The translations under genes and the position numbers were made by a program. Positions 5,314 to 42,281 of a stretch of 64,000 nucleotides of DNA are shown here, piece after piece. Every line of letters starts with the position of its first letter. The stretch's first letter is position 1. Under the pieces are notes generated by a model that did not search any database, was not told the origin of the DNA, and saw only the letters and a program-made list of their open reading frames with translations. Source of the stretch: an uncultured Pseudomonadota bacterium (GTDB lineage: Bacteria > UBA10199 > JADFYH01); NCBI GenBank assembly GCA_964384365.1, contig CAYLKF010000007.1, positions 10,732-74,731 of the forward strand, in the 5' to 3' direction.

Positions 5314-6693
5314 TTAAAACAAATGCGCTCCATGGGCACCTAAGCTAAACATGAGTTGTAAAATGACCGCACTCGCCCAATCTTCTCCGGTTAATTTATC
5401 GGCTTCATATTGGAGTCGAATTTGAGAATATTCTGTCGGATTAAAGGCGATTGCGGGTGTCAGCCGAGTTTCGCGCGTTTGTAATCCTACCGGCAAGCCC
5501 ATTTGGTCCCAGCGAAAGGCCGCGTGCCAACGCTTGTAGAATTGCCAATCGAGATAACTGTAAAGTCCACCATCGGTCATGGTTTGGGTAAGATCTTCAG
5601 CGCTCACTTGCATGTTTCGTCCGATGTACTCGGTTTGCCAAGAAAGGCTTGTGTGGGCAGAGGGTTTCCATCTTAAGAGAAAATCTCCGCCGTAGAGCGC
5701 GGTATAATTTCCGGGGGCTGTTGCGTTGTAGCCCCAGGCGAAAGATCCACCCAATAGAAGAGTAAGCGTATTGGTTAGATCGGTGCTGGCGCTTAAGCGT
5801 CCGTTATAGAGAAAATCTTTCTTTTGAGTGCCACCGAAGCTGTTTGAATTATCACCATTGGTGACGGTGCTTTGAAACTGTAAGAAAAACGGAGTAGGAA
5901 AAAGATACGACATTTGCAATCCTACTTCGCCGAGCCCATCAGCCCCCAGCAGATATTTGTTGGCAAGATTATTATCGGCAAAAGTCCAGGCATGAAGATG
6001 TTTAGGGTTTTGGCGTCCAAAGGGAAGCAGCATAATTCCACCTTTAAACTGCAAGCCTTTAGGCAGACCACTCTGGGTGGTGAAATAGGCTTCTTCAATT
6101 TCCACACCCTCTTGGGCAAAACTTAAGAAAGCATCGTAGCGAAAATAAGGATCCACCGCGCCCTGAAAGGCGACTTCGAGCTCCTGAAAAGTAAAACCTG
6201 TACTGGCAGGATCTATGCCCACAGAGCCTGTGTTATCGCCTAGAGGGTCACGTTCAAAATAGGAGCCTGCGAAAGCACCAGTTACGCTAATGTCGGGCAA
6301 AATTTTTGCAGCAGCACTATTACCTGTGGGGTATTTCCAGAGACCAATCGATTTCCGGTTGGCGCCCGGCGAAGCAGGAGCATTATTCACCTGATCGAGC
6401 AGGGCTTGAGATTCTTCTTTTAGAGTTTCTGTTTTTTCACCGATCTTCGGGCTCTCTTGCTCCTCTGAAGGAGTGGGTTTGAGATCTGGCTTCGAAGAAC
6501 GAGAAGTTTTTTTGCCTTCGAGTTCTGATAGGCGTTCATTTTGTTTTTCAACAAGTTCCGTTAATTTTTTTACGCTTTCTTTGAGCTCTTGTACTTCTTG
6601 TTGAAGCGCTTTGGTATCTTGAGCAAACAAGGGTGTGCTTACTTGCAAGAAACAAAGGCATAAAAGAAAGCTTCGTTTAAAAAGCTTAGGCAT
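5314..6693 (-). CDS. Outer-membrane beta-barrel metal-uptake protein linked to the Zn ABC operon
   Basis: Signal peptide, N-terminal coiled coil, beta-strand patterning, C-terminal LGAHGAHLF; first structural gene of the znu operon. Confidence 0.7.
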   Translation of the reverse strand: MPKLFKRSFLLCLCFLQVSTPLFAQDTKALQQEVQELKESVKKLTELVEKQNERLSELEGKKTSRSSKPDLKPTPSEEQESPKIGEKTETLKEESQALLDQVNNAPASPGANRKSIGLWKYPTGNSAAAKILPDISVTGAFAGSYFERDPLGDNTGSVGIDPASTGFTFQELEVAFQGAVDPYFRYDAFLSFAQEGVEIEEAYFTTQSGLPKGLQFKGGIMLLPFGRQNPKHLHAWTFADNNLANKYLLGADGLGEVGLQMSYLFPTPFFLQFQSTVTNGDNSNSFGGTQKKDFLYNGRLSASTDLTNTLTLLLGGSFAWGYNATAPGNYTALYGGDFLLRWKPSAHTSLSWQTEYIGRNMQVSAEDLTQTMTDGGLYSYLDWQFYKRWHAAFRWDQMGLPVGLQTRETRLTPAIAFNPTEYSQIRLQYEADKLTGEDWASAVILQLMFSLGAHGAHLF

Positions 6694-36191: not shown

Positions 36192-36464
36192 TTAATCTTT
36201 CGCTTCGCAGTTTGCCCAGCCATTGTAATCGATCCAACACTCGGTTTTATCCGGAGTGAAGATCGCTTTTTCTTGGGCGTTCATATCACTGTATCGTTCA
36301 ATTTCTCGGTTTACACTTTTACCGGTAGTAGGGTCTTTATAGTGGAGCAAGAGCAAACCTTGGCTTTCTACATAGCCGGGTTTGCTTAGATCAACGCGTT
36401 CTGCAAACGCATTGCTCGCAAAAAGTAAGCTCAAAGCGATTCCTAGTAAAAGTCCTTTTCTCAT
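36192..36464 (-). CDS. Small secreted hypothetical protein
   Basis: Signal peptide (ASNAFA), SD GGAGGGAG, two Cys near the C-terminus. Confidence 0.65.
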   Translation of the reverse strand: MRKGLLLGIALSLLFASNAFAERVDLSKPGYVESQGLLLLHYKDPTTGKSVNREIERYSDMNAQEKAIFTPDKTECWIDYNGWANCEAKD

Positions 36465-36716
36465 ACTCTCTCCCTCCGTTTGTTTGAATGATCTAAAAAT
36501 TATAAGGGAGAGCCCGCTAATTAGCTACTTCACTTGTTTAGACAGATTTAAACAATCTTTAGCAAAATGCGTGATTTTTGTGTGAATCCACATGATTTCA
36601 AACAGAAGTGATCGGTGTTTGCGATGTTTATGCAAAGCAGAGAGGATGTTTTCTTTTGAATCGAACATAGATCTTGACACCCCCCCTTTTTCTAGAATAA
36701 CCGAATAAATAATTGT

Positions 36717-36803
36717 ATGACTTCTTTTTTCGCACAAATTTGTTGTTACGCTTTAGGCCGCATGGACTGTTGTCTGTCCATGTGTATGCAGCCGATTGCG
36801 TAG
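36717..36803 (+). CDS. Cys-rich leader peptide MTSFFAQICCYALGRMDCCLSMCMQPIA (not in ORF track)
   Basis: Hand translation: 28 aa, 5 Cys (all TGT), 4 Met; 146 nt upstream of the porin-sbp-cysTWA operon. Confidence 0.75.
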   Translation: MTSFFAQICCYALGRMDCCLSMCMQPIA

Positions 36804-36912
36804 CGCGTGCGATTTCTCTTTTTAAATTTCATTAAAAATTTAAATCTCTCCGCGACGATGAATCGGCTTATCCAAATGATTTGCTTTGCCCGTAGTGGGC
36901 CGGTTTTTCGTT
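36745..36912 (+). promoter_or_regulatory. Putative attenuator (alternative 1:2, 2:3, 3:4 pairings)
   Basis: GTTACGC 36745-51/GCGTAGC 36798-804; GCCGATT 36791-97/AATCGGC 36861-67; AATCGGC/GCCGGTT 36899-905 followed by a T tract. Confidence 0.65.
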
Positions 36913-36949
36913 TATTATTTCTGAATAGTGATTAAAGGAGAAAGTTTTC

Positions 36950-38299
36950 ATGCTGAGAAAAATTTTGATTGCGGTTTGTGTATGGGGCACGGCTTTTGTT
37001 GCCTCAGAAAGTTTTAGTGCTACGCAAAAGAAGCATCATGGAAAGCATCATTCGAGTCATAAGCATTACACCAAAGAAGTAAGTGCAGCGGCTGCGACTT
37101 CAGCTCCGGCTCTTGCGCCCGAATCAGCACCTGCGCCGGCTACGAGCGGCGGGGGGTGGTTTGATAAATTTGAGGTGGGTTGGAAACGGGGCCTGGCATT
37201 TATCAGCAAAGATCAAAAGTATTCTTTGAAATTCAGAATTCTTTTGCACCCGCGCTATGAGTTTCAGAGTTATGACGCCGCGTTGGAGAGTAGGGATGAT
37301 CAAAACACTTTCCGTTTGCGTCGACTCCTTCTGTCTTGGGAAGGAAATGCGTTCACCCGAAAACTTGAATATAAAATTCAAGTAAATGCGGTGGCCCAGG
37401 AATGGAAAGATTTTTTAGAAGATGCTTATGTGAATTATCGCTTTAAAGATCTTCTTCAAGTGGAATTTGGGCAATATAAAGTTCCCTATATTCGTCAACA
37501 GATTAATTCTTCAGGACGTCTACAATTCACCGAACGTTCTTTGGCCTCGGAAGAGTTTCGTTGGACAGCCACCGATGCAAGCACCATCACCACTTGCACC
37601 TTGCCGGGCGGGGGAACAGTCAGCGGTAGTGGCATCACCTGCGGTGGTGGTGCAACATCCAGCAGTGTGACAATTTATCCCGAACGTCGATTTCATTATG
37701 ATACAGGGCTTATGCTTCAAGGTCAGGCCTTTGATCGCCGCCTAGAATACTACGCTTCGATTAACAATGGTTCGGGGCCCAATCGTTTAAATGTGAATAA
37801 TGAGTTTCTCTATTTAGGCCGCACGGTTTGGAATATTTTAGGCCAATACGGTTATTCTGAGGCGGATCCCGATTACCTCAATGAACCGGCCTTGTTTGTG
37901 GGGGGGAGTGGTGGTTTTAATTCTCAAGATAATACCCAAACCAAGATTGCCCAGGCGGGCGGTGAAATCGGATTCAAATACAAAGGGGCCTCTCTTCAAG
38001 GCGAGTATTTTTATCGTCATAAAAATCCTCTTGCTGGGCCTACGCGGGGTGATCATGGGTACTATGTGCAAGCGGGTTACACGGTGATTCCAAAACATTT
38101 AGAGCTTGCGGGCCGAGTTTCTCAGGTTTTTTTAGAAGGGCCTCGGAATAATAAATCGGAATATACCGCGGGCATTCACTACTACGTATTCGGGCATGAT
38201 TTGAAATTTCAGGGGGATTACTCGTATTTGCCGACTCAATATACCTCTGGAACGGCAAACGATCACCGAGTAATCGTACAAGTGCAAACCTGGTTCTAG
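36950..38299 (+). CDS. OprO/OprP-family anion porin (sulfate operon)
   Basis: Signal peptide; FRLRR..L.WEG, GQYKVPY, SSGRLQFTERS, GEYF; terminal WF; SD AAAGGAG. Confidence 0.85.
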   Translation: MLRKILIAVCVWGTAFVASESFSATQKKHHGKHHSSHKHYTKEVSAAAATSAPALAPESAPAPATSGGGWFDKFEVGWKRGLAFISKDQKYSLKFRILLHPRYEFQSYDAALESRDDQNTFRLRRLLLSWEGNAFTRKLEYKIQVNAVAQEWKDFLEDAYVNYRFKDLLQVEFGQYKVPYIRQQINSSGRLQFTERSLASEEFRWTATDASTITTCTLPGGGTVSGSGITCGGGATSSSVTIYPERRFHYDTGLMLQGQAFDRRLEYYASINNGSGPNRLNVNNEFLYLGRTVWNILGQYGYSEADPDYLNEPALFVGGSGGFNSQDNTQTKIAQAGGEIGFKYKGASLQGEYFYRHKNPLAGPTRGDHGYYVQAGYTVIPKHLELAGRVSQVFLEGPRNNKSEYTAGIHYYVFGHDLKFQGDYSYLPTQYTSGTANDHRVIVQVQTWF

Positions 38300-38396: not shown

Positions 38397-39413
38397 ATGA
38401 AAACTTTTTCAAAAATTACTTTAATTGCTTTTTTATTGGGATTTTTTGCCTGCACAGGGCAGTCGACTCGCACCCAACAAAGTTTACTCAATGTTTCGTA
38501 TGATCCTACGCGTGAACTTTACCAAGATTATAATCAAGCTTTTGGTAAATATTGGAAAACAAAATCGGGCCAAGACGTAAAATTTAATCAATCGCACGGA
38601 GGCTCTGGCAAACAAGCGCGCGCGGTGATTGATGGCTTAGAGGCCGATGTGGTTACTTTGGCTTTGGCCTATGATGTCGATGCGATTGCGGAGAGGGCAA
38701 AACTTTTGCCCACCGATTGGCAAAAACGCTTGCCCAATAATAGTGCGCCTTACACCTCGACGATCGTCTTCTTGGTTAAAAAAGGAAATCCGAAGGAAAT
38801 TAAAGATTGGGACGATCTTGCAAAACCGGGGGTTGCGGTGATTACGCCTAATCCTAAAACTTCGGGTGGTGCCCGTTGGAACTACCTAGCAGCTTGGGGT
38901 TATGCCTTGAAACAGCCCGGAGGCTCTGAAACAACGGCCAAAGATTTTGTCAGCAAAGTCTATAAAAATGTGCCGGTTTTAGATTCGGGTGCACGAGGCT
39001 CTACCACCACCTTTGTGGAGCGTGGAATCGGAGACGTTTTGCTCGCCTGGGAAAACGAGGCAATTTTGGCAGTTAAAGAACTCGGGAAAGATAAGTTCGA
39101 GATCGTGGTGCCCAGCGTGAGCATTTTGGCCGAGCCTTCGGTGGCAGTGGTGGATAAAGTAGCTAGCAAACATGGAAACCAAGCTTTGGCTCAAGCCTAT
39201 CTCGAATACTTATATACCCCGGAGGGCCAAGAAATAGCGGCTAAGCATTATTACCGCCCGCGCTTGGCAGAGATCGCCACGAAATATGCTTCGCAATTTC
39301 CGAATTTAAAGTTATTTACCATTGATGAGGCTTTTGGCGGTTGGCAGAATGCTCAAAAAATCCATTTTGCCGATGGGGGAACTTTCGATCAAATTTATCA
39401 GCCGGGACGATAG
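38397..39413 (+). CDS. sbp: Sulfate ABC transporter substrate-binding protein
   Basis: [49 protein letters not shown]. Confidence 0.96.
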
Positions 39414-39423
39414 AGTTTTTTTA

Positions 39424-39464
39424 GACCTCCCCTTAAATCCTCTCTTTACCTTAAGGAGGGGAGA
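39424..39464. repeat. Degenerate REP-like palindrome (family 2)
   Basis: GACCTCCCCTT-aaa-TCCTCTCTTT-acctt-AAGGAGGGGAG, similar to 5264-5297 and 9801-9846. Confidence 0.55.
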
Positions 39465-39478
39465 AATAGGATGAGAAA

Positions 39479-40312
39479 TTGTTTTTGAAACGTAAAAATA
39501 AATCCATTCTTCCGGGTTTTGGAATCAGCATGGGAATCACGCTCACTTATCTGGGCCTGCTCGTGTTGATTCCACTTTCTTCTCTTTTTTTAAAGACAGC
39601 GACTTTATCGGGCTCGGCACTTTGGCAGACGATCACTGATCCACGTGTTTTAGCCTCTTATCGTTTGAGTTTTTCGCTTTCGTTGGCTGCGGCAGCAGTG
39701 AACGGTATTTTGGGCCTGCTCGTGGCGTGGGTTTTGGTACGCTATTCTTTTCCGGGTAAACGTTTTTTTGATGCGATGGTAGATCTGCCCTTTGCACTGC
39801 CCACGGCCGTTGCCGGGATTAGTCTCACCACCTTATATTCCACTCACGGGTGGATCGGAAAAATACTCGATCAATGGGGAATCAAAGTCGACTATACACC
39901 TTTAGGAATTGGAGTGGCCTTGGTTTTTATCGGGCTTCCCTTCGTGGTGCGCACGCTGCAACCTGTTTTGCAAGATTTAGATCCCGAGATTGAAGAAGCG
40001 GCCAGCAGTTTAGGGGCGAGCCGATTTCGCACCTTCGTTTCGGTGATTTTTCCGCATTTGATTCCTGCGCTTCTCACCGGCTTTGCCCTTTCGTTTGCGC
40101 GTGCTCTCGGTGAATATGGCTCGGTTGTTTTTATTTCAGGGAACATGCCTTTTAAAACCGAGATTACGCCGCTTTTGATCATGACGAAACTGGAACAATT
40201 CGATTATCCGGGCGCAACTGCGATTGCGGTGGTGATGCTGCTCGCGTCGTTTTTACTCCTCTTCTTGATTAATCTTTTACAAGCCTGGCAGGCGAGGAGG
40301 ATTGGAGGATGA
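39479..40312 (+). CDS. cysT: Sulfate ABC permease CysT
   Basis: LPGFGIS, VDLPFALPTAVAG, EEAASSLGA, SFARALGEYGSVVFISGN. Confidence 0.95.
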   Translation: MFLKRKNKSILPGFGISMGITLTYLGLLVLIPLSSLFLKTATLSGSALWQTITDPRVLASYRLSFSLSLAAAAVNGILGLLVAWVLVRYSFPGKRFFDAMVDLPFALPTAVAGISLTTLYSTHGWIGKILDQWGIKVDYTPLGIGVALVFIGLPFVVRTLQPVLQDLDPEIEEAASSLGASRFRTFVSVIFPHLIPALLTGFALSFARALGEYGSVVFISGNMPFKTEITPLLIMTKLEQFDYPGATAIAVVMLLASFLLLFLINLLQAWQARRIGG

Positions 40313-41202
40313 AATTTGATTTCCTTTCTCGGCAGATTGCCAGAGCCTATCGTATTCGCGCTGTAACCGATAAAGATCCACTCCCCGTGCGTATTTTACT
40401 CTGTGGTATTGCGATTGGATTTTTAATTTTATTTTTATTTTTCCCTTTACTCTGCGTGTTTGAAGGAGCCTTGCAAAAAGGCGTGCAATCTTATTTGCAG
40501 GCGATTGCTACTCCCGATTCTTGGGCCGCGATCAAGCTTACTTTGCTTACTGCCTTTGTCTCAGTGGTCGTCAATTCTATTTTTGGAGTTTTTGCAGCCT
40601 GGGCTATTGCAAAATTTGATTTTCGCGGAAAAAATATTCTGCTTACTTTAATTGATTTGCCTTTCGCGGTTTCACCCGTGATCTCCGGACTTATTTTTGT
40701 TTTGCTCTTTGGTTTACAGGGTTGGCTTGGGCCCTACTTGGCCGAGCATGATTTAAAAATTATTTTTGCGGTGCCCGGAATTATCTTGGCCACCTTATTT
40801 GTGACTTTTCCTTTTGTGGCGCGCGAATTGATTCCCCTGATGGAAAGTCAAGGCCGCGAGCAAGAAGAAGCAGCGATTGTGCTGGGGGCTACCGGCTGGC
40901 AAACTTTTTGGAAAGTGACTTTGCCCAATATTAAGTGGGGGCTTCTTTACGGCGTAATTCTTTGTAATGCGCGCGCCATGGGAGAATTCGGAGCCGTCTC
41001 GGTGGTATCGGGGCATATTCGCGGCAAAACCAATACGCTGCCGCTGCATGTGGAGATTCTCTACAACGAATATGATTTTTCGGGTGCTTTCGCCGTCGCT
41101 TCACTCTTAGCTTTCTTAGCCTTGATCACTTTAGTTTTGAAAACCCTGCTTGAAGAGAAGGTGCAAGAAACTGGAAAAGTGGCCGTTAAAAAAATGCACT
41201 AA
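40309..41202 (+). CDS. cysW: Sulfate ABC permease CysW
   Basis: [38 protein letters not shown]. Confidence 0.95.
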
Positions 41203-41213
41203 ACGGGAGTTTT

Positions 41214-42281
41214 ATGAATATCGAAGTTTGTGGACTCAATAAAAGTTTCGGTGACTTCGCCGCCTTAACCGATATTAACCTTGTGATTCCCCAAGGGGAG
41301 CTCGTGGCTTTGATTGGGCCGTCGGGTTCGGGCAAAACTACTTTGCTTCGCATTATCTCAGGCCTCGAAGTGCCGACGAGTGGTTTGATTTTGATTGATG
41401 GCGAAGACGCGACTTATCGTACCGCGCGGGAGAGGCAAGTGGGTTTTGTGTTCCAGCACTACGCCTTGTTTCGCCACATGACGGTGTTTGATAATATTGC
41501 TTTTGGTTTAAAAGTAAAACCGCGCAAGATTCGTCTTTCAAAAGAAAAAATCGAAGAAAAAGTTTTTGAACTTTTAAAACTCGTGCAGCTCGAAGGTTTA
41601 GCCAAACGCTACCCCTCTCAACTTTCGGGTGGGCAGCGTCAGCGTATCGCCTTAGCGCGCGCCTTGGCGGTGGAGCCCTCGATGTTACTCTTGGATGAAC
41701 CCTTCGGTGCGCTTGATGCGAAGGTGCGAAAAGAATTGCGCCGTTGGCTGCGCCGCTTGCACGATGAAATTCATGTGACGAGTGTGTTTGTGACTCACGA
41801 TCAAGAAGAAGCGCTTGAAGTGGCAGACCGGGTCGTCATCATGCACCGCGGAAAAATTGAACAAGTGGGCAGCCCCGAACAAGTTTACGATCATCCGGCC
41901 AATCCCTTTGTGTTTGATTTTCTAGGAAACGTGAATTTATTTCATGGCCGTGTAGATGCAGGCCAGGCGCATTTGGGTGATTTAAAAGTGGCCGTGCCCG
42001 AGCATGCGAGCAAAAATGGCGTTTCAGCCGTGGGGTATGTGCGACCGCATGAAATTGAACTTCACAAAGAAAAAACTGCAGAGGATTTATTTCCCGCTAC
42101 CATTAAAGCCATTGTGCCGATTGGCCCTATTGTGCGCATCGAGCTCATCCGTACCGATACTCAAGATTATCTTGAAGTGGAGCTGGGCAAAGGGCTTTAC
42201 ACCTCGCTACAGCTCAAAGTGGGCGATCAAGTGTATGCCCGGCCGAAGAATTTGAAGGTGTTTGTGGAGGAAGAGAAGTAG
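41214..42281 (+). CDS. cysA: Sulfate ABC ATP-binding protein CysA
   Basis: [43 protein letters not shown]-terminus. Confidence 0.96.

Follow-up and report, generated by a model that had tools for sequence, protein, structure and literature searches.

We analyzed a 64,000-nucleotide (nt) stretch of DNA from an uncultured Pseudomonadota bacterium (contig CAYLKF010000007.1, positions 10,732 to 74,731; hereafter the window), and in particular the leader region of the sulfate-uptake operon that it contains. The operon begins with a gene for an OprO/P-family porin and continues with the sulfate ABC transporter genes sbp, cysT, cysW and cysA (porin-sbp-cysTWA); homologues of the Sbp protein are labelled sulfate-binding protein by their sources, and a tblastn search found no other cysteine or sulfur-assimilation gene in the window. 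Upstream of the porin gene lies a short, unannotated upstream open reading frame (uORF) rich in cysteine (Cys) codons, followed by 146 nt that separate its end from the porin ATG. The uORF and this spacer contain four segments, numbered 1 to 4, that can pair with each other in competing ways, together with a hairpin (P4) and an outer helix (P1). The positions of these features are given in Table 1.

Table 1. Features of the leader region and the sulfate operon, numbered from the first nucleotide of the window (SD, Shine-Dalgarno site)
Feature	Position (strand)	Details
Putative promoter hexamers	36674-36698 (+)	TTGACA (36674-79) and TAGAAT (36693-98); spacer 13 nt, atypical
Conserved CGA(A)TAA motif	36702-36708 (+)	7-10 nt 5' of the uORF ATG; in all close leaders
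Leader peptide uORF	36717-36803 (+)	ATG 36717, TAG 36801-36803; 28 codons; encodes MTSFFAQICCYALGRMDCCLSMCMQPIA
P1 5' strand	36730-36735 (+)	TCGCAC, codons 5-7; pairs with 36807-36812
Cys codons 9-10	36741-36746 (+)	TGT TGT; directly 5' of segment 1, overlapping it
Segment 1	36745-36758 (+)	GTTACGC (P2 5' strand) and GGC (P3 5' strand)
Hairpin P4	36759-36784 (+)	CGCATGGAC (36759-67) / GTCCATGTG (36776-84), loop TGTTGTCT
Cys codons 18-19	36768-36773 (+)	TGT TGT; in the loop of P4
Cys codon 23	36783-36785 (+)	TGT; partly within the P4 3' strand; invariant
Segment 2	36790-36804 (+)	AGCCGATTGCGTAGC; stop codon inside; partner is segment 1 (closed) or segment 3 (open)
P1 3' strand	36807-36812 (+)	GTGCGA; partner of 36730-35
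Linker	36813-36851 (+)	39 nt, no G; A/U hairpin 36821-29/36836-44 plus CTCTCC 36846-51
Segment 3	36855-36871 (+)	ACGATGAATCGGCTTAT; core AATCGGCT pairs with segment 2 (anti-terminator) or segment 4
Small hairpin	36883-36904 (+)	GCT..GCCC-GTAGT-GGGC.GGT; overlaps segment 4, excludes segment 3; -6.6 to -7.4 kcal/mol
Segment 4 and U-rich tract	36895-36913 (+)	GTGGGCCGGTT (36895-905), TTTTTCGTTT (36904-13); proposed attenuation site
Porin gene (OprO/P family), first structural gene	36935-38299 (+)	SD AAGGAG 36935-40, ATG 36950; Pfam PF07396, E = 9e-18
sbp, cysT, cysW, cysA (sulfate ABC transporter)	38397-42281 (+)	Pfam SBP_bac_11, BPD_transp_1 (twice), ABC_tran + CysA_C_terminal + TOBE_3

A first-pass annotation of this DNA had delimited the Cys-rich uORF correctly to the base. 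Five of its 28 codons are Cys codons, all of them TGT, arranged as two tandem pairs and a single codon. We compared it with the 485 ATG-started ORFs of 12-70 amino acids found on both strands of the window: its Cys density was the highest of all, and its Cys count was exceeded by only one longer ORF, which lies within an opposite-strand gene. Sulfate, which the operon imports, supplies the sulfur of cysteine, i.e. the uORF is enriched in codons for the end product of the pathway, as are the leader ORFs of trp/his-type attenuators.

Folding of the 199-nt leader predicted a minimum free energy of -58 kcal/mol, which was lower than that of each of 200 dinucleotide shuffles (200/200, z = -3.7). 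In the minimum-energy fold, segment 1 pairs with segment 2, i.e. GTTACGC...GGC (36745-58) pairs with GCC...GCGTAGC (36791-804), enclosing hairpin P4 (36759-84); segments 3 and 4 pair at the 3' end, and P1 closes the whole sensor. P1 had been overlooked in the first-pass annotation, whereas the other elements of the switch that it described, namely the 1:2 pairing around a hairpin, the alternative 2:3 pairing and the position of the stop codon within segment 2, were all recovered. The alternative rests on full complementarity between AGCCGATT (36790-97) in segment 2 and AATCGGCT (36861-68) in segment 3. In the free window RNA the two states are close in energy, with -57.8 kcal/mol predicted for the closed form (P1, 1:2 and P4) together with 3:4, and -52.1 kcal/mol for the 2:3 state. 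We modeled the presence of a ribosome by masking its footprint either (i) at Cys codons 9-10 or (ii) at the stop codon. In case (i) the predicted fold of the window leader switched to 2:3, and in case (ii) 3:4 returned. Both alternative states anticipated by the earlier annotation were obtained in this way, and the predicted folds reproduce the trp/his-type arrangement in which the 1:2 and 2:3 pairings are mutually exclusive and a stalled ribosome masks segment 1. A second ORF, starting at the conserved ATG in segment 3 (36858), was considered and rejected, as its length varies from 6 to 26 codons in relatives.

Homologues of the window porin were used to fetch genomic loci (designated by L numbers), and the neighbourhoods of Sbp homologues added further ones. 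The leader was found in 12 instances, 11 of them distinct, in uncultured relatives from a lineage represented solely by metagenome-assembled genomes, which carry the names 'Deltaproteobacteria bacterium', 'uncultured Pseudomonadota bacterium' or 'bacterium'. Homologous leaders are present at L076, L079/L080, L081, L003, L006, L084, L082, L088 and L005, and a divergent one at L089. L003 came from the first screen, L006 and L005 were found by tblastn, and L076, L079/L080, L081, L082, L084, L088 and L089 came from the neighbourhoods of close porin or Sbp homologues. Every leader (11/11 distinct) precedes a sulfate operon. The gene order is leader-porin-sbp-cysTWA in the window, L076 and L003, leader-DUF2292-porin-sbp-cysTWA in the other relatives except L089, and leader-porin-sbp-cysE-fic-cysK in L089. 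Most of the porin homologues are paralogues in pst operons (phoBR ... porin-pstSCAB-phoU) and served as a negative control; none of these paralogues has a leader in its own orientation. Scanning the metagenome_contigs DNA with the pattern TGTATNCNGCCGNNNGCGTA-N38-66-CGATGNNNCGGC, which matches four of the fetched loci, gave no match, and of the 72 pattern matches obtained when metagenomes were scanned with the peptide alignment, none was confirmed.

The ORF has been kept at all of these loci. Its start codon, frame and stop codon are present in 11/11 distinct copies, each of which has 5-9 Cys codons, so that the Cys-rich uORFs expected in relatives from the first-pass annotation were found in every homologous leader. 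The ATG is invariant, the length is 27, 28, 29 or 31 codons, and all insertions and deletions (indels) are multiples of three. Conservation is highest at Cys codons 9-10, where all six columns are 100% identical in ten leaders even though the closed structure leaves four of the six bases unpaired; we propose that sensing takes place mainly at these codons. In the loop of P4 the TGTTGT is 90% conserved, compared with 77% for the remaining unpaired uORF columns. Cys codon 23 is probably kept by RNA pairing rather than for sensing, because a ribosome stalled there would cover segment 2. The conserved residues other than Cys (A6-Q7, Y11-A12, G14, R15-M16, M22, Q25-P26 and A28) are all encoded on helix strands, and the residues encoded by unpaired RNA vary among the leaders. 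RNA pairing and the Cys codons therefore explain the conservation of the peptide. The peptide of the divergent leader L089, MSGHFTQTLLSKPYNTCCCRCCMCMCMCICI, has nine Cys codons and little sequence in common with the others. Its stop codon lies where the others have CAG, directly at segment 2, and the leader keeps the 1:2 / 2:3 / 3:4 logic.

Both of the competing structures are conserved in an alignment of ten sequences. For the closed structure (P1, 1:2 = P2 + P3, and P4), 94.5% of cells are paired and four pairs have changed on both sides, compared with 18-47% of cells paired in slid controls, and the unguided prediction of RNAalifold was exactly this structure. Taken helix by helix, P1 is 97% paired and includes one GC-to-AU compensatory change, P2 is 97% and P3 90% paired, and P4 has three pairs changed on both sides, the indels in its loop all being multiples of three. 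For the 2:3 helix (AGCCGRUU:AAYCGGCU plus CGUA:UACG) the paired fraction is 94.2% and both partners have changed in three pairs, e.g. an A-U pair in the window is G-C in L003; the slid controls for this helix gave 19-54%. The ACGATG...CGGC sequence of segment 3 is nearly invariant across the aligned leaders. Coming from ten related sequences, these helix figures support a leader that alternates between the two pairings but fall short of statistical proof.

We consider it likely that this leader is a ribosome-mediated leader-peptide attenuator, which senses charged tRNA-Cys and controls porin-sbp-cysTWA. The trp-type Cys-codon leader that had been claimed for this sulfate porin-ABC operon is thus supported by 11 distinct leaders, by covariation and by conservation of the Cys codons. 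Its role would most likely be to raise sulfate uptake when charged cysteine tRNA runs low, because the leader is conserved in relatives. In the mechanism that we propose, transcription would begin shortly 5' of position 36717 and the 28-codon uORF would be translated. When Cys-tRNA is plentiful the ribosome would reach the stop codon inside segment 2, and when no ribosome is loaded the RNA would adopt the closed form (P1 36730-35/36807-12, 1:2 36745-58/36791-804, and hairpin P4). In either case segment 3 (36855-71) would be available for hairpin formation further downstream, at the U tract (36895-36913), and operon expression would fall. When Cys-tRNA is scarce the ribosome would stall at Cys codons 9-10, or secondarily at codons 18-19, with a footprint covering the P1 5' strand and segment 1; segment 2 would then pair with segment 3 (AGCCGAUU:AAUCGGCU plus CGU:ACG), and the operon would be expressed.

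The sensor is well supported, and the output stage differs among the leaders. In most relatives intrinsic termination is the predicted read-out. The terminator of L089 is a textbook one, GCUCCCCG-N4-CGGUGGAGC followed by U8, and in L005 and L088 segment 3 is part of a long hairpin that borders on U6-U7. L003, L006, L084 and L082 have a two-tier hairpin and a U run; they share the same GC-rich upper stem, below which a weak stem formed by ACGAUGA of segment 3 extends to the U run. A U run is absent from L079-L081, where a GCUUCGU sequence by segment 3 is complementary to AUGGAGC in the SD region of the DUF2292 gene (candidate regions for SD masking are L079 3150-3240 and L081 755-845), which suggests that the same sensor is coupled to a translational output in these loci. 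In the window, AATCGGCTTAT (36861-71) can pair with GTGGGCCGGTT (36895-905), and TTTTTCGTTT follows. The 3:4 pairing beside a U tract that the first-pass annotation had claimed therefore exists, whereas its function as an intrinsic terminator is uncertain and is the weakest element of that proposal; here the window offers a weak candidate only. The CTCTCC at 36846-51 is complementary to the porin SD, and this site and the 5' end of the uORF are the main predicted partners of the SD in the window folds. In equilibrium folds of the window leader the unpaired probability of the porin SD was 0.07-0.10 for the free RNA or with a ribosome at the stop codon, and 0.35 when a stalled ribosome occupied the first Cys codons. 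These folds hint, weakly, that the CTCTCC sequence covers the porin SD as long as 2:3 does not form, and that translation is part of the response. The read-out in the window may therefore be weak intrinsic termination, Rho-dependent termination or translational control.

Two further observations concern the 3' part of the leaders. A conserved CUCCACC sequence, a perfect complement of the terminator 3' strand GGUGGAG, lies just past the terminator U tract at L003 1104-1110 and L006 2040-2046 (-), with equivalents in L084, L082, L088 and L089; it is absent from the window and L076. Acting as a fifth segment, it would be predicted to form a 4:5 hairpin in read-through transcripts. In L076 (5904-5975) there is a possible hairpin relay, in which segment 3 pairs with GCC-CGUUGU, GCCC with GGGC, and GGG with a CCC that precedes a U run; the window differs by 12 nt and therefore lacks the last of these elements.

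Several points weigh against an attenuator that works by termination at the end of the window leader. The 3:4 stem has 11 pairs, four of which are G-U, and a 23-nt loop (-10.9 kcal/mol), as the annotation had cautioned in calling it short and long-looped, and it appears in the minimum-energy fold only if the U tract pairs, being absent when the RNA is truncated at 36905. The small hairpin at 36883-36904, the core of which was also called terminator-like by a scan, lies beside the U tract, forms independently of segment 3 and competes with the 3:4 stem; L076, the nearest relative, has no other 3' structure in common with the window, and the shared hairpin contains one compensatory pair. In several relatives the GC-rich upper stem of the terminator is predicted in both states, and only the weak lower stem depends on segment 3. 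Other points bear on the sensor itself. No SD precedes the uORF, in contrast to the strong ones of the neighbouring genes, and some related sulfate operons that have no porin also have no leader, no Cys-rich small ORF being found before the porin-less sbp operons at L085-87, L090, L091 and L092. All of the loci are metagenome-assembled, the transcription start, uORF translation and 3' ends are placed from sequence, the covariation comes from ten related sequences, and the shuffle statistics are not probabilities.

Some of these points would be accommodated if the Cys-codon and ribosome sensor were retained and the window output were something other than intrinsic termination at 36905-36913, i.e. 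Rho acting on the naked, G-free leader, or masking of the porin SD by pairing of CUCUCC (36846-51) with GGAG (36937-40). We regard this as unlikely, with enough in its favour to be kept as a rival. The 3:4 pairing is weak and is not conserved with L076, and the linker at 36813-51 has no G in 39 nt. For SD masking in particular, the rise in accessibility on stalling seen in the window (from 0.07-0.10 to 0.35) was also predicted in L076 (from 0.03-0.14 to 0.39), L079-L081 combine the absence of a U run with GCUUCGU:AUGGAGC complementarity at the DUF2292 SD, and the Cys uORFs of mycobacteria act translationally. However, the accessibility effect is modest, comes from equilibrium folding and depends on the regions masked, and no change was predicted in L081; SD masking was for this reason not accepted as the settled output. 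The linker, despite having no G, is poor in C (7/39) and is therefore not a typical rut site, and most members of the family have canonical terminators.

Two other explanations do away with the sensor that we favour. The conserved structure could be a ligand- or protein-binding RNA, e.g. a riboswitch for a sulfur metabolite, in which the ORF is incidental. A 21-nt block is identical between leaders whose porins are only about 50% identical, and the four-helix nested fold shows covariation, both of which would suit a binding RNA. We nevertheless consider this very improbable: the start, frame and stop are kept in 11/11 distinct copies with indels in multiples of three, conservation of the Cys codons extends to positions in the unpaired linker and loop, L089 has kept an ORF with nine Cys codons although most of its 5' sequence has been replaced, and covariation is seen in both of the mutually exclusive helices, in keeping with a ribosome-driven switch. 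Rfam 15 had nothing overlapping 36700-36950 even at E <= 10, and at the Rfam gathering score no leader was matched in the window or in seven related loci, the only exception being a SAM riboswitch elsewhere in L092; the only Rfam matches in the window were two tRNAs. It is even harder to believe that the 28-amino-acid Cys-rich peptide is itself the functional product, e.g. a metal- or sulfur-binding small protein or the precursor of a modified peptide, with its position reflecting co-expression only. Canestrari et al. (doi 10.1101/834739) raised the same possibility for mycobacterial uORFs, and residues other than Cys are conserved here (A6, Q7, I8, G14, M16, Q25, P26 and A28). However, the conserved non-Cys codons all lie on helix strands and the residues from unpaired RNA vary, L089 has the same context and RNA logic with a different peptide sequence, there are no maturation genes nearby, and the uORF has no SD.

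The classical leader attenuators of amino-acid operons are Escherichia coli trpL and the his, leu, thr, pheA and ilv leaders. The leaders described here resemble the trpL type in their short uORF rich in end-product codons, in the mutually exclusive 1:2 / 2:3 / 3:4 pairings, in a stop codon in or beside segment 2, and in a terminator hairpin with a U run before the first structural gene, which is clear in L089, L005 and L088. They differ in that cysteine would be sensed, in that the operon encodes uptake (a porin and a sulfate ABC transporter) rather than biosynthetic enzymes, in the additional outer helix P1, in the uORF without an SD, and in the weak terminator of the window; there is no sequence or Rfam relationship between the two. 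Genes for sulfur assimilation and uptake are controlled in other ways elsewhere: the LysR-type protein CysB activates cysPUWA/sbp in enterobacteria, and S-box/SAM riboswitches operate in Firmicutes. In these systems, as proposed here, the genes are induced under sulfur or cysteine limitation, but the sensor is a protein or a metabolite-binding RNA instead of a translating ribosome.

The annotation's account of the literature, in which Cys leader peptides were attributed to actinobacteria, was accurate: we found them described only in Actinobacteria, and predicted before cysS of Rhodobacterales. Our literature searches gave no account of a Cys attenuator located before sulfate-transport genes or occurring in this lineage. 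Seliverstov et al. 2005 (PMC1262725) predicted Cys leader peptides, without terminators, before actinobacterial cys and cbs operons. Canestrari et al. 2020 (doi 10.1101/834739) reported that mycobacterial polycysteine leaderless uORFs act translationally, and stated that uORF-mediated attenuation for cysteine had not previously been described. Like these small ORFs, the uORF of the window is unannotated, rich in Cys, without an SD and placed before a sulfur or cysteine operon, and in both cases stalling at the Cys codons is proposed to remodel the RNA downstream. In mycobacteria, however, the poly-Cys tract pairs with the SD of the next gene and there is no terminator (doi 10.1101/834739; PMC1262725), whereas the Cys codons of the window leader occupy an unpaired linker and the loop of a hairpin and would act through the 1:2 / 2:3 switch, and an intrinsic terminator is predicted in most members; the two systems also differ in phylum, peptide and target genes. 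The closest predicted counterpart with a terminator is uORFC-8-2, which precedes cysS in Rhodobacterales (Breaker laboratory 2021, PMC8632094). For this motif, too, ribosome-mediated attenuation has been predicted, and it combines a uORF containing Cys codons with a terminator stem and U run. It has two tandem Cys codons in the first of two stems, a cysteinyl-tRNA synthetase gene as its target and an alpha-proteobacterial host; our leaders, set apart from it here by description, have 5-9 Cys codons, a four-helix closed state, sulfate-uptake genes and another host lineage.

The class of mechanism is therefore known, and the leader family, its target and its lineage appear to be new. More tentatively, these leaders may constitute the first family of cysteine attenuators of the classical (anti-terminator/terminator) type to control the acquisition of sulfate, in a deltaproteobacteria-like lineage that is uncultured, and in which one ribosome/tRNA-Cys sensor with interchangeable outputs takes the role played elsewhere by CysB or the SAM riboswitch. 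The outputs in this reading would be a canonical terminator, a terminator with a fifth segment (GGUGGAG:CUCCACC), SD masking and, in the window, a weak or Rho-type site. Leader-peptide attenuation, described mainly for Trp, His, Leu, Thr, Phe and Ile/Val, would be extended to cysteine in its competing-hairpin form and to a transport operon with an outer-membrane porin, and sulfate uptake would gain a regulatory annotation in a lineage known only from metagenomes. Closely related porins would be split between the phosphate and sulfate regulons by their leaders. The leader would also provide a compact, sequence-defined sensor of tRNA-Cys charging that is testable in reporters, and the varied output platforms on one sensor would amount to a natural experiment on the evolution of attenuators.

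The DNA 5' of the uORF is also conserved, in the window, L003, L005, L006, L076, L079, L081, L082, L084 and L088, and could be a binding site for a regulator or the mark of a very short or absent 5' untranslated region (UTR). TTGAC(A/G)C.CAAC and an A/T-rich hexamer occur at the same place in 10/10 close leaders, with 13-16 nt between the conserved TTGACA and the best -10-like hexamer; a promoter consensus scan made no call at TTGACA/TAGAAT in the window, owing to the spacing. Judged by their sequence, these hexamers are the putative promoter, which would give a 5' UTR of 0-12 nt without an SD. The CGA(A)TAA motif could be part of such a short SD-less 5' UTR, or the -10 element of a near-leaderless transcript.

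The small DUF2292 (YezD-like) gene lies between the leader and the porin gene in most relatives, e.g. at L079 3222-3404, at L006 1830-2009 (-), and in L082, L084 and L088; there is none at this place in the window, L076, L003 or L089. The sulfate porin of the window shares 81% identity with the porin heading a pst operon in a relative, but just 65% with the pst porin encoded in the same genome as itself (regions concerned: window 36950-38299, L078 8001-9344 and L077 752-2083), which suggests a recent duplication, recruitment or gene conversion between sulfate and phosphate porins. In L092, which is more distantly related to this lineage, a SAM-I (S-box) riboswitch (6205-6310, 99.9 bits) lies before a Cys_Met_Meta_PP gene, and the neighbouring sbp gene is without a Cys leader; the RNA sensor used for this pathway therefore differs between lineages. 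Directly upstream of the window leader, and divergent from it, is an ORF of 90 amino acids at 36192-36464 (-), which has no Pfam match and the position of which is kept in L076, L079, L080 and L081.

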